Shown: positions 202 to 1,923 of the stretch, piece by piece
How the letters are laid out: each line of letters opens with the position of its first letter
Position numbering within the stretch: position 1 is the first letter of the stretch
Virus record (IMG/VR): IMGVR_UViG_2744054872_000001
Span: 1-11,088 of that record
Direction: 5' to 3' (one strand)
Source of the DNA: a virus
Lineage: Duplodnaviria > Heunggongvirae > Uroviricota > Caudoviricetes
DNA: 11,088 nt
Translations under genes and position numbers: made by a program
The notes under the pieces: generated by a model
What the model saw: only the letters and a program-made list of their open reading frames with translations
What the model was told of the DNA's origin: nothing
Databases searched by the model: none

Positions 202-720
202 TTAAGCGAATTCCCAAAAACGCAAATCAACGATCGCTTCTTTGAATTCCGCGTCGTCTTCAGGTGGCAATGCTGCACGGCGCATCTCCAGCATTTCCAT
301 TGCCCAACCATCAAGCGGCACGATACGCCATTGATAAGGTACTCCCTCTACAGGCACCTCAATATCGTCAATGAACGGTTCCACTTCCAGGACCTGGATA
401 TCTTCAGCCAGAGCATTCATATCGCAATCGTAATAATGCTCTTTACCGCAATGTTTACAGGTGTAGGTGAATGTCTCGACCGGTGTTTCACGGGAGCCGG
501 TAAATATCCACCATAACGCGGTAATCCGGTCCTGCGCCGTCCATGTCAGGGGATCATGTTTCGCGGGTTCAGCCAGCAAGGCTTTTAAATACGCCGTTGT
601 CTGTTGTTCTTGTTCCTCCGGTGTTATCGAGTTGAAACGCATCGCATCAGCAATATTTGGCTGACGGAACTGGATCAATTCAGTTGGCCGCGATGGTAGC
701 GGGAAAAGGGGTAAAAGCAT
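202..720 (-). CDS. Hypothetical protein (172 aa) with a Cys cluster (C-x-H-C-G-x7-C-D); last gene of a three-gene operon
   Basis: ATG at 720-718, stop TAA at 204-202; 14 bp after the upstream gene; protein-like composition. Function not recognised. Confidence 0.55.
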   Translation of the reverse strand: MLLPLFPLPSRPTELIQFRQPNIADAMRFNSITPEEQEQQTTAYLKALLAEPAKHDPLTWTAQDRITALWWIFTGSRETPVETFTYTCKHCGKEHYYDCDMNALAEDIQVLEVEPFIDDIEVPVEGVPYQWRIVPLDGWAMEMLEMRRAALPPEDDAEFKEAIVDLRFWEFA

Positions 721-734
721 CCTTGCTCCTTAAT

Positions 735-1346
735 TCAAAGAGAAAAACTAAAGCCCAGAAGGGAAGCCAAAGAACTTGAGGATTGGTTAAACGTGCTGTG
801 CAATGCGAAGGTCATTGGGAATGACTTAAATTCCGTAACCTGATCCCGCGCATAGGTGACATCGCCGGTAGTGACCGGGAATACCGTCATCTCATTTTCC
901 AGTTTGGTTAAGCCGGAAGACAGCAACCGATAAATACGCACATTGAGCAAATATTTAGACGGTATATTCCCGGTACCGTCCGGATTGATCACCCGACTTT
1001 TTGCCGTCTTAAACCAGTCCAAAACGAGGCCATCAACGGTATCCCTGACCATCATTGTTATCTGCCCAGGCGAACGCTCTGTTGGTTGAAGGATATTCCC
1101 TCCGCCGATTTTAATCGTTTCATATTCGATGCTGTAATCGTGGTAGGTAATGTCTTTGGCAAAGAAGTCTGCCCCCTCCAGTCCATCAACTTCGACAGAG
1201 AACTGCCATCCTTGCGCGAACAGCATTTTGTTCATGATGATTGACGTCAGCTTACCAACTTCCCGCTCACCAACGCCGGAGCCAAATAATGTCGTCGTTA
1301 ATGCCGAAGATACATAAGACTTTACTGAAGCAACATTAAGCCCCAT
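735..1346 (-). CDS. Hypothetical protein (203 aa), middle gene of the three-gene operon
   Basis: ATG at 1346-1344 preceded on the minus strand by GAGGGGG; 10 bp after the upstream gene. No family recognised. Confidence 0.55.
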   Translation of the reverse strand: MGLNVASVKSYVSSALTTTLFGSGVGEREVGKLTSIIMNKMLFAQGWQFSVEVDGLEGADFFAKDITYHDYSIEYETIKIGGGNILQPTERSPGQITMMVRDTVDGLVLDWFKTAKSRVINPDGTGNIPSKYLLNVRIYRLLSSGLTKLENEMTVFPVTTGDVTYARDQVTEFKSFPMTFALHSTFNQSSSSLASLLGFSFSL

Positions 1347-1356
1347 ATCAGCCCCC

Positions 1357-1923
1357 TCACTTCAACATGGATGAGAAAAGAACAATCCCCGGGATAATTG
1401 CCCTTGTTGCGCTCATTTTCTCTTCCAGATCCAGCTTTCGCTGATACAGCGTGTTCTCGTCGGATAAATTGCTGGCATCGAGTTTCCCCGCGATAGATAT
1501 TCTTCGCAGGCGATCAGTGTTAGGTATCGCGATTAACACTTCCAGATAGTCAGAAAGTAACCCAATGATTTCAGGTGGCACTTCCCCATTATCCAGATCC
1601 ATATCACGTAAATTAGCCAGATATGACACATTCAGCGGGTATACCGCTCGATGAGTATCTTCAAGCTCGATATTCCCATCGTAAACATCGGAGTAGACAA
1701 GATCGCCGGTGTGATCTGTAACCGATACGAGCGCAAGAAAATCAGCTGGGCAAGCAAGTGATTTACAGGTCTGATCAGTGAAGCGTATCCGCTTGATGTG
1801 CCCCGCCCTATCCTGGTAGGTTCCCAATGCTTTTCTTAGCAGAGACTCCAGTAAGGCAGGTTCATCCGCAATCAAAGGTGTGAAGCGGGTTTTGACGTCT
1901 TCGAGTAATTGTCGTGGTGTCAT
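1357..1923 (-). CDS. Hypothetical protein (188 aa), first gene of the three-gene operon
   Basis: ATG at 1923-1921; the GAGG Shine-Dalgarno lies inside the 3' arm of the 1930-1964 palindrome. No family recognised. Confidence 0.55.

Follow-up and report, generated by a model that had tools for sequence, protein, structure and literature searches.

In phage P1, a long late morphogenesis operon of about ten genes is read from the late promoter LPsit in the order pmgC, tub, pmgB, sit, pmgA, bplA, 16, R, S and U, and CRISPRi has shown the first three of these genes to be essential (PMC10695390). PmgC was seen by cryo-EM to be a dodecameric adaptor that lies between portal and stopper and joins the portal to the neck (PMC12810830), and its knockout yields tails and incomplete heads (PMC9024508). 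Tub is a hexameric tube initiator with a tube-like fold, whose ring of six subunits seeds polymerisation of the tail tube on the baseplate hub, the real tube being formed by BplB (PMC12810830). Knockouts and proteomics have shown PmgB to be essential for tail formation and absent from virions, and it has been proposed as a tape-measure chaperone (PMC9024508). The hub-assembly proteins gp51 and gp26 of phage T4, both strong members of PF12322 (T4_baseplate), are likewise non-virion proteins needed for hub or tail assembly according to their record annotation; no gp51/gp26-type protein has had its structure solved or its mode of action worked out.

The window analysed here, a stretch of 11,088 nucleotides forming positions 1 to 11,088 of the virus record IMGVR_UViG_2744054872_000001, is over its whole length 100% identical to the P1-like IncY plasmid pTetA_020022 of E. 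coli and to its sister plasmids. Near one end it carries three minus-strand open reading frames at 1357-1923 (188 aa), 735-1346 (203 aa) and 202-720 (172 aa), separated by gaps of 10 bp (1347-1356) and 14 bp (721-734) and each preceded by a good Shine-Dalgarno (SD) sequence (GAGG, GAGGGGG and AAGGAG, respectively). Positions 203-1981 are 98-99% identical to P1, P7, SJ46 and RCS47, in which the genes are annotated as pmgC, tub and pmgB; for P1 the identity is 98.9% over 1,779 bp, with the same gene order and orientation. We put the probability at about 0.95 that this locus is the promoter-proximal end of the long late morphogenesis operon of P1, residing on a degenerating P1-like IncY phage-plasmid. 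The first gene, pmgC (1357-1923, minus strand), is intact and its product shares 185 of 188 residues with P1 PmgC, matching phrog_1851 (E 1.5e-102) and, along its full length (residues 1-188 on 1-188), the PDB entry 9UMS 'PmgC' (E 2.7e-118). The second, tub (735-1346, minus strand), is also intact, encodes the baseplate tube-initiator protein with 202 of 203 residues identical to P1 Tub, and matches phrog_1842 (E 1e-106) and the PDB entries 9AY5/9VZK 'Tub' (E 1.5e-131, residues 1-203 on 1-203). The third is a truncated pmgB, discussed below.

The sizes of the three genes and the gaps between them, as given in an earlier note made by eye on this DNA, agree with the open reading frame coordinates, and the contrast in base composition that it remarked upon is present as well, with 46-50% GC over positions 200-2000 against 33-38% in the adjoining AT-rich island (2000-3600). 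The same note took the three genes for a self-contained operon, whereas they are the first three genes, driven by LPsit, of an operon of which only the head remains here. Among the identities that it considered, phage structural or accessory genes proved to be the right one: PHROG matches for the three proteins range from E 1e-96 to 1e-107, identity to P1 is 98-99%, and the structures of PmgC and Tub have been solved. The order pmgC-tub-pmgB-(x)-tape measure is kept in relatives down to 36% identity, in which these genes also stay syntenic with those for the tail tube, the sheath and the tape measure. Compared with P1, the locus shares gene order, spacing, the late promoter with its -22 box and TAGAAT, and a leader palindrome; it differs in that pmgB ends after codon 172, most of sit is missing or broken up by IS1, the -22 box is altered at 2 of 9 positions (ACTA to ACAT), and the upstream sim genes are replaced by the AT-rich island.

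Profile and structure comparisons suggest that PmgB is a distant homologue of T4 gp51 and gp26. Aligned in hhalign, the PmgB and gp51 families matched at 95.3% (E 2.3e-8) over 112 columns, with the CxxC motifs in register; the alignment became convincing only once gp51 was represented by a family profile and the PmgB profile had been deepened, and the PmgB family gave only weak matches against single T4 sequences (33% for gp51 and 23% for gp26, the latter short and confined to the CxxC). The PF12322 profile scored 18.1 bits against the open reading frame of the window and 17.2 bits against full-length PmgB, both below the gathering threshold of 24.5 bits, and it matched 13 of 16 PmgB family members, all below threshold (best E 1.8e-4). 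An AF2 model of PmgB (pLDDT 85.8) had as its best Foldseek matches in BFVD entries named 'baseplate hub subunit / hub assembly protein, T4-like / Gp26' (E 4e-9 to 4e-4, TM up to 0.72), so that the predicted folds match, and a phmmer search of the PDB with the PmgB fragment returned no match even at E 10. The alignment pairs the first ~130 residues of PmgB with residues 1-118 of gp51, including the CxxC common to both; overall identity is ~21% and the C-terminal halves do not align, although each family has conserved cysteine in its C-terminal half (C185/C186 in gp51 and C241 in PmgB). Our literature search found no published link between PmgB and the gp26/gp51 chaperones.

The position of the gene bears on its likely role. 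In P1 and 9 relatives pmgB lies upstream of the tape-measure gene, directly or, in two of these relatives, with one extra gene between them, and in the window the tape-measure gene has been lost. Tail assembly chaperones of long-tailed phages (lambda gpG/GT and the HK97 gp12 type) are likewise encoded between tube-type and tape-measure genes and share with PmgB the absence from virions; in fold, an N-terminal part of ~75 residues of PmgB resembles 2ob9, the HK97 chaperone, and 3fgx/3klu only weakly. Most likely, PmgB would serve to load Sit, the tape measure, into the hub, as a non-structural chaperone or catalyst.

The cysteine cluster reported in the earlier note is present in the pmgB reading frame, with six residues and not seven after the glycine (C88-K-H-C91-G-x6-C99-D), and the suggestion that it may bind metal agrees in part with residue conservation. 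Across 57 relatives H221 is invariant, and C88, C91, H95 and C241 are nearly so, whereas H90 and C99 vary. The CxxC falls at a beta-hairpin turn in the AF2 model. The CxxC knuckle (C88 and C91) may form a structural metal site together with H95, H221 and C241, the last two being the likely partners of C88, C91 and H95 as judged from conservation; both H221 and C241 fall in the part of PmgB that is deleted from the window.

Upstream of pmgC, the late promoter LPsit (1955-1973, minus strand) is annotated at the homologous position in the P1 GenBank record AF234172. Lpa-dependent late promoters are defined by a 9-bp -22 box (consensus about AAGTGACTT), described as the Lpa site (PMC10695390), and by a -10 element TAnnnT following 4-5 nt later. 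The window fits this definition with AAATGACAT-CTCG-TAGAAT at 1973-1955, the -22 box occupying 1965-1973 and the -10 TAGAAT 1955-1960. In P1, LPsit and LP26 are equal at 18 of 22 positions, with AACAAATGACTA and TAGAAT identical and a 4-nt spacer of CTCG versus GCGG, and LPsit could be aligned with five other annotated P1 late promoters. Relatives whose PmgB is 70-76% identical retain both the -22 box and the -10. We also weighed whether the plus strand bears a mirrored, divergent late promoter and rejected this, since relatives lose the T of its -10 yet keep the G.U pairing.

The promoter overlaps a palindrome at 1924-1970 (minus strand), an inverted repeat with 17-nt arms that are 88% complementary and a 13-nt loop. 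Its 5' arm (1954-1970) overlaps the -10 and spacer of LPsit and its 3' arm (1924-1940) covers the SD of pmgC (GAGG, 1929-1932). The RNA fold has a predicted energy of -24 to -25 kcal/mol (z = -5.1 to -6.3), with none of 200 shuffles as good. Four diverged relatives retain the hairpin, with one compensatory change of G-C to A-U and two single changes that preserve G.U pairing, and in relatives the stem extends exactly over SD and AUG; covariation support is thin, in that with 7 sequences the observed score was reached by 62 of 500 shuffles. Relatives in which bplB abuts pmgC have neither an intergenic region nor a hairpin. When ten P1 late promoters were examined for anti-SD pairing, only LPsit was significant (p < 0.0005), LPpac giving p = 0.08; LP23, LPlydA and LPpac look alike by eye, but the summed p of 0.09 led us to reject anti-SD pairing as a general trait of P1 late promoters.

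Which RNA could form this hairpin depends on where transcription begins. Because the -10 hexamer of LPsit lies inside the 5' arm, the late mRNA should start in the loop and cannot form the hairpin. With the start site placed from the annotated -10 and the usual spacing of ~7 nt, an RNA beginning at about 1948 is predicted to be unstructured (-3.2 kcal/mol, z 0.2), compared with -24 kcal/mol (z -6.3) for a read-through RNA. Late transcripts activated by Lpa would therefore carry a free SD, while transcripts reading through from upstream accessory genes (sim in P1, the AT-rich island here) would contain both arms and would fold into the hairpin, burying the SD and, in relatives, the AUG as well. 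Outside the lytic cycle, late genes on such read-through RNAs would likely go untranslated and their transcription would probably be terminated by Rho. We infer that translational control, if any, would bear on read-through transcripts and not on the operon's own late mRNA; the palindrome over the SD of the first gene, to which the earlier note had called attention, is real and conserved, and the mode of control that it was taken to suggest needs revision. The arrangement recalls cases in which a leader hairpin masks the SD only if the RNA comes from an upstream promoter, in that here too the presumed start of the operon's own transcript is preceded by the anti-SD arm, with the difference that the LPsit case is deduced from sequence and does not extend to the other nine P1 late promoters tested.

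Two modest, tentative ideas can be put forward. The palindrome at LPsit would be a promoter-embedded insulator that silences only upstream read-through RNAs, such that RNAs from the lysogenically expressed upstream module are shut off, first by burial of SD and AUG and then by Rho polarity, and RNAs initiated with Lpa are translated; PmgB would be the P1 member of the gp51/gp26 family, with a Cys/His metal site bridging its two halves. We consider these ideas possible, with the odds leaning somewhat against them.

A different role for the palindrome would be that of a terminator, of an RNA-processing site (for example for RNase III) serving the upstream sim or accessory operon, or of a protein-binding site at the DNA level, without any masking of the SD. 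Its stem of 17-20 bp, situated 80-130 nt downstream of the stop codon of the upstream gene, would be suited to such a role, and long perfect stems are typical substrates of RNase III. An intrinsic (Rho-independent) terminator was rejected, as the stem is not followed by a U-tract (the tail reads GUUUCAAUG in the window and GUUGGCAUG or GUUGCCAUG among relatives) and a terminator scan did not call the hairpin. Recognition as DNA is disfavored by the G.U-preserving changes in two relatives (L007 and L008), which point to RNA and by which the mirrored -10 of the opposite strand is lost as well; the exact reach of the stem over SD and AUG in relatives likewise speaks against this role. We regard these alternatives to the insulator as unlikely.

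The reading put forward in the earlier note, a translational switch on the late mRNA in which the SD of pmgC is sequestered until some signal opens it, draws on the same strong hairpin over the SD and its conservation with a compensatory change. It is hard to reconcile with the presence of TAGAAT within the 5' arm, for a transcript starting ~7 nt downstream of the -10 lacks that arm and is unstructured, and we judge it to be improbable.

The third gene, taken in the earlier note for an intact gene of 172 codons, is a pseudogene (202-720, minus strand) comprising codons 1-172 of the 293-codon P1 pmgB, with 170 of 172 residues identical to PmgB residues 1-172 and a match to positions 1-171 of 276 of phrog_1854. 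In RefSeq it is marked as a pseudogene 'missing C-terminus', and its TAA stop was created at a deletion junction. Base-by-base comparison with both P1 flanks, together with BLAST coordinates, places this junction at 203-204, at a TA microhomology. The deletion amounts to 1,687 bp (43171-44857 in P1, AF234172), taking out pmgB from codon 173 to codon 293, the spacer and ~413 codons at the start of sit, and it joins pmgB codon 172 to an internal 130-bp fragment of the tape-measure / transglycosylase gene sit (75-204, minus strand), which is non-functional and 97.7-99.2% identical to sit of P1 and P7 (P1 43041-43170). P1 homology stops at position 75, next to the end of an IS1-family element (1-74) that interrupts sit; RefSeq places an IS1 family transposase immediately beyond, and we take the terminal sequence GGTAATGCTGCCAACTTACTGATTTAGTGTATGATGGTG to be the IS1 end. 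PmgB has thereby lost residues 173-293 and sit its 5' third, and what was left of sit was cut by IS1. With these lesions in pmgB and sit, the element should be unable to build tails by itself. The same junction occurs in 12 of 496 P1-like plasmid records and in 11 of 485 E. coli genomes carrying the sequence.

Such stable inheritance, in at least 12 plasmids from several hosts, might be read as a sign that the 172-residue fragment is functional, for example as a gp51-like N-terminal domain with a dominant-negative effect on superinfecting P1-like phages; the whole gp51-homologous region (PmgB 1-132) is retained, and SD and promoter are intact. We hold this to be highly improbable, given that the invariant H221 and the near-invariant C241 are gone, that the stop is an accidental product of a microhomology deletion, that RefSeq calls the gene a pseudogene, and that other phage genes disrupted on the same element (sit, bplB and repL) fit plain decay. 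Finally, the notion of an unrecognised multi-gene system of three novel proteins, for instance in defence or as accessory genes, has next to no chance of being right: the genes are tightly packed and the 188- and 203-aa proteins (PmgC and Tub) have no significant match in Pfam, but the proteins are nearly identical to P1 PmgC, Tub and PmgB, cryo-EM structures exist, the synteny described above is conserved, and PADLOC, a check for which the earlier note had called, matched 0 defence-system families with all three proteins, while the clear matches to ordinary phage structural families are the very result which that note had named as counting against unidentified proteins.

pmgC, tub and the truncated pmgB are well-studied P1 late genes, already known and ordinary, and there is no new system here. 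As textbook morphogenesis genes, two of them with cryo-EM structures, they lend the locus little discovery value, and the insulator and the PmgB metal site, even if true, would not make it a new kind of system. What may be of use elsewhere is that PmgB can now be annotated as gp51/gp26-like, which offers a handle on a family of myovirus assembly factors that are essential, and that the LPsit hairpin is a simple candidate case of promoter-dependent SD masking. The plasmid lineage itself is a defective P1-like phage-plasmid, which on account of its lesions in pmgB/sit, bplB and repL would be expected to survive in plasmid form and not to spread as a phage. It is represented in at least 12 PLSDB records, which come from isolates of human, poultry, meat and food origin and some of which carry resistance genes.

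The three minus-strand ORFs described in the earlier note were recovered in the ORF listing at 1357-1923 (188 aa), 735-1346 (203 aa) and 202-720 (172 aa), separated by 10 and 14 bp and each with a good Shine-Dalgarno (SD) sequence, and the GC contrast with the neighboring DNA was likewise present (46-50% over 200-2000; 33-38% over 2000-3600). The description of their products as unidentified proteins did not survive database searches. PHROGs profiles matched the 188-aa protein as PmgC-like (E 1.5e-102), the 203-aa protein as 'tail tube protein' (E 1e-106) and the 172-aa protein as PmgB-like (E 2.9e-96), with only profile positions 1-171 of 276 covered in this last case. 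By megablast, P1, P7, SJ46, RCS47 and other phages were 98-99% identical to window positions 203-1981, the genes being annotated in these phages as pmgC, tub and pmgB, and IncY plasmids, for example E. coli pTetA_020022 (NZ_CP032890), were 100% identical to the entire 11-kb window. Clear matches of this kind to phage structural families are what the earlier note had named as refuting its reading: the module is already known and sits on a P1-like plasmid in decay. The novelty that is left is limited to two points, a better placement of PmgB among protein families and a leader hairpin whose testable role would depend on the promoter.

Nor is the operon confined to three genes, as had been proposed. 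The Lpa-dependent late promoter LPsit is placed immediately upstream of pmgC in the P1 GenBank record, and beyond pmgB the same strand of P1 continues with sit (the tape-measure gene), pmgA, bplA, 16, R, S and U; pmgC-tub-pmgB are therefore the opening genes of a long late operon. The order pmgC-tub-pmgB followed by the tape-measure gene was found in all contigs with PmgB relatives (36-76% identity; Salmonella, Cronobacter, Xenorhabdus, Aeromonas and others), two of which have one additional gene between pmgB and the tape-measure gene. In the more distant relatives no spacer separates pmgC from bplB, which immediately precedes it; in P1 and the window, an immunity/lytic-replicon block (c4-icd-ant, kilA, repL and either sim or what replaces it) sits between them.

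PmgC gave a full-length match to PDB 9UMS and Tub to 9AY5/9VZK; cryo-EM of P1 identifies PmgC as the dodecameric portal-to-stopper adaptor and Tub as the hexameric baseplate tube initiator, the true tube protein being BplB (PMC12810830). Knockouts of pmgC and pmgB are both non-viable, the former yielding tails and incomplete heads and the latter no tails, and the virion proteome does not include PmgB (PMC9024508). CRISPRi shows pmgC, tub, pmgB and sit to be essential (PMC10695390).

Several lines of evidence indicate that PmgB is a distant assembly factor of the type of T4 gp51 and gp26, the baseplate-hub assembly proteins. The window ORF had a sub-threshold match to PF12322 (T4_baseplate; E 0.0023), as did 13 of 16 PmgB relatives, and both gp26 and gp51 are strong members of this family. 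Profile-profile comparison with hhalign related PmgB to the gp51 family with 95.3% probability (E 2.3e-8), aligning gp51 1-118 with PmgB 1-132 and placing CxxC on CxxC. The invariant cysteines of the gp51 family are C85, C88, C185 and C186, and the two families share a layout of an N-terminal CxxC and C-terminal Cys. The AlphaFold2 model of full-length PmgB was confident (pLDDT 85.8, pTM 0.83), with the CxxC at a beta-hairpin turn; in BFVD its top matches carried the names baseplate hub subunit, T4-like hub assembly protein or Gp26, with E-values between 4e-9 and 4e-4 and TM scores reaching 0.72, and a Foldseek search of the PDB gave no match. In T4 itself, gp26 and gp51 are adjacent and divergent (2803-3429, minus strand, and 3480-4229, plus strand, of the T4 locus L013), and both match PF12322 across nearly their full length; they are therefore paralogues.

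The cysteine cluster reported for the last gene is present, as C88-K-H-C91-G-KEHYYD-C99-D, one residue shorter than first described. Only 28 clusters in a set of 5.8 billion proteins matched PmgB, and a profile search returned 165 representatives. C88, C91, H95, H221 and C241 were invariant in the 16 relatives; among 57 more diverse relatives H221 was invariant and the other four were conserved at 90% or more. Metal binding is thus plausible on the basis of residue conservation, with C88/C91/H95 and H221/C241 as candidate ligands, but H90 and C99, which the earlier note had included, vary among relatives and are not among the candidates. Half of the candidate ligands are absent from the truncated copy in the window.

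That copy retains 172 of the 293 residues of P1 PmgB. An internal fragment of sit (window 75-204; P1 43041-43170) abuts the pmgB remnant, whose homology runs from window 203 onward (P1 44856 onward), and base-by-base comparison with P1 showed that the two share a TA microhomology at 203-204 and that the junction itself creates a TAA stop. The lesion is a 1,687-bp deletion in which PmgB residues 173-293, the spacer and ~413 sit codons were lost. Window positions 1-74 are presumably the end of an IS1 element, RefSeq placing an IS1 family transposase immediately beyond. RefSeq labels the remnant a pseudogene 'missing C-terminus'. Of 496 P1-like plasmid records, 12 share the junction, as do 11 of the 485 complete E. 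coli genomes that carry the sequence.

The palindrome ahead of pmgC is real (arms 1924-1940 and 1954-1970, 17 nt, 88% complementary, 13 nt apart), and its proposed role in translational control held in part: it overlaps the SD and folds strongly (-25.3 kcal/mol, z = -5.1; none of 200 shuffles as good), but its 5' arm contains the -10 of LPsit (TAGAAT, 1955-1960), so only read-through RNA would be affected. LPsit was typical among six annotated P1 late promoters aligned, its sequence AACAAATGACTACTCGTAGAAT being nearly identical to LP26 AACAAATGACTAGCGGTAGAAT. Judging from promoter position, a late transcript would start near 1948, ~7 nt past the -10, and would leave out the 5' arm. RNA from ~1948 folded alone was unstructured (-3.2 kcal/mol, z 0.2); with the promoter region it reached -24 kcal/mol (z -6.3) and the SD was buried. 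We infer that the hairpin masks the SD in read-through transcripts, where it would silence translation, and not in Lpa-initiated mRNA, which would be freely translated. No U-tract follows the stem, and in every relative that has the hairpin the end of an accessory gene on the same strand lies 60-130 nt upstream. The hairpin is kept in four relatives with 70-76% PmgB identity (z -4.3 to -4.9), where it reaches over the AUG. Among the relatives, a double change converts one G-C pair to A-U and two single changes keep pairing only as G.U, which favors an RNA structure; in this small sample, however, 62 of 500 column shuffles reached the observed covariation score. A test for the same anti-SD arrangement was negative overall at nine other P1 late promoters, and the arrangement is therefore specific to LPsit. 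At three of the other late promoters, pyrimidine stretches of 6-7 nt in or just past the promoter are complementary to the first gene's SD, namely LP23 (P1 locus L012, 8773-8843; CTCTTCC/GGAAGAG), LPlydA (P1 locus L015, 26622-26669; CCTCCT/AGGAGG) and LPpac (L012, 40475-40529; CTTTCGT/ACGAAAG); these are suggestive by eye and not significant in a shuffle test.

Elsewhere in the window, bplB, the true tail-tube gene (10358-10840, minus strand), lacks its first 27 codons, with a breakpoint at ~10785: P1 homology ends at 10784, the next sequence, starting TGAACCGCCCCGG, looks like an IS3-family end, and RefSeq gives a 'hypothetical protein' of 160 aa whose N-terminus is foreign. In the lytic replication initiator gene repL (7559-8403, plus strand), one nucleotide of a C-run at ~8009 is missing (CCCCC to CCCC), and the resulting frameshift ends RepL, normally 281 residues, at residue 166. 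The gene shows up as two overlapping ORFs and carries no CDS annotation in the plasmid record. A hok/sok toxin-antitoxin (8569-8893; Rfam sok 114 bits, 51-aa Hok ORF) and IS421 of the IS4 family (8914-10255) stand in place of P1 rlfA/rlfB/pmgF. Just past the IS1 at the left end, pTetA_020022 (locus L002, 5640-7732) carries an anti-phage dGTPase, ssb, a YaaC-family protein and neighboring hypotheticals in the place of the remaining P1 tail operon, and therefore the whole baseplate/tail-fibre segment may be missing or relocated.

In place of the superimmunity (sim) genes of P1 lies a three-gene island of 33-38% GC (1982-4980; ORFs at 2054-3313, 3629-4168 and 4180-4752, all minus strand), which may be alternative exclusion or defence cargo at this locus. 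One gene encodes a DUF559/REase-like protein of 419 aa that has KPL-type repeats and a membrane segment at its N-terminus; its PADLOC matches, to the endonuclease components of PDC-S37 and Hhe, were weak. The other two encode a DUF5384 protein and a TraT-like/glycine-zipper lipoprotein. The P1 immI C4 antisense RNA and its a1/b1 target sites are intact (5059-5111 and 5180-5265, plus strand; Rfam RF01695 and RF03163), with icd, ant1/ant2 and kilA downstream.
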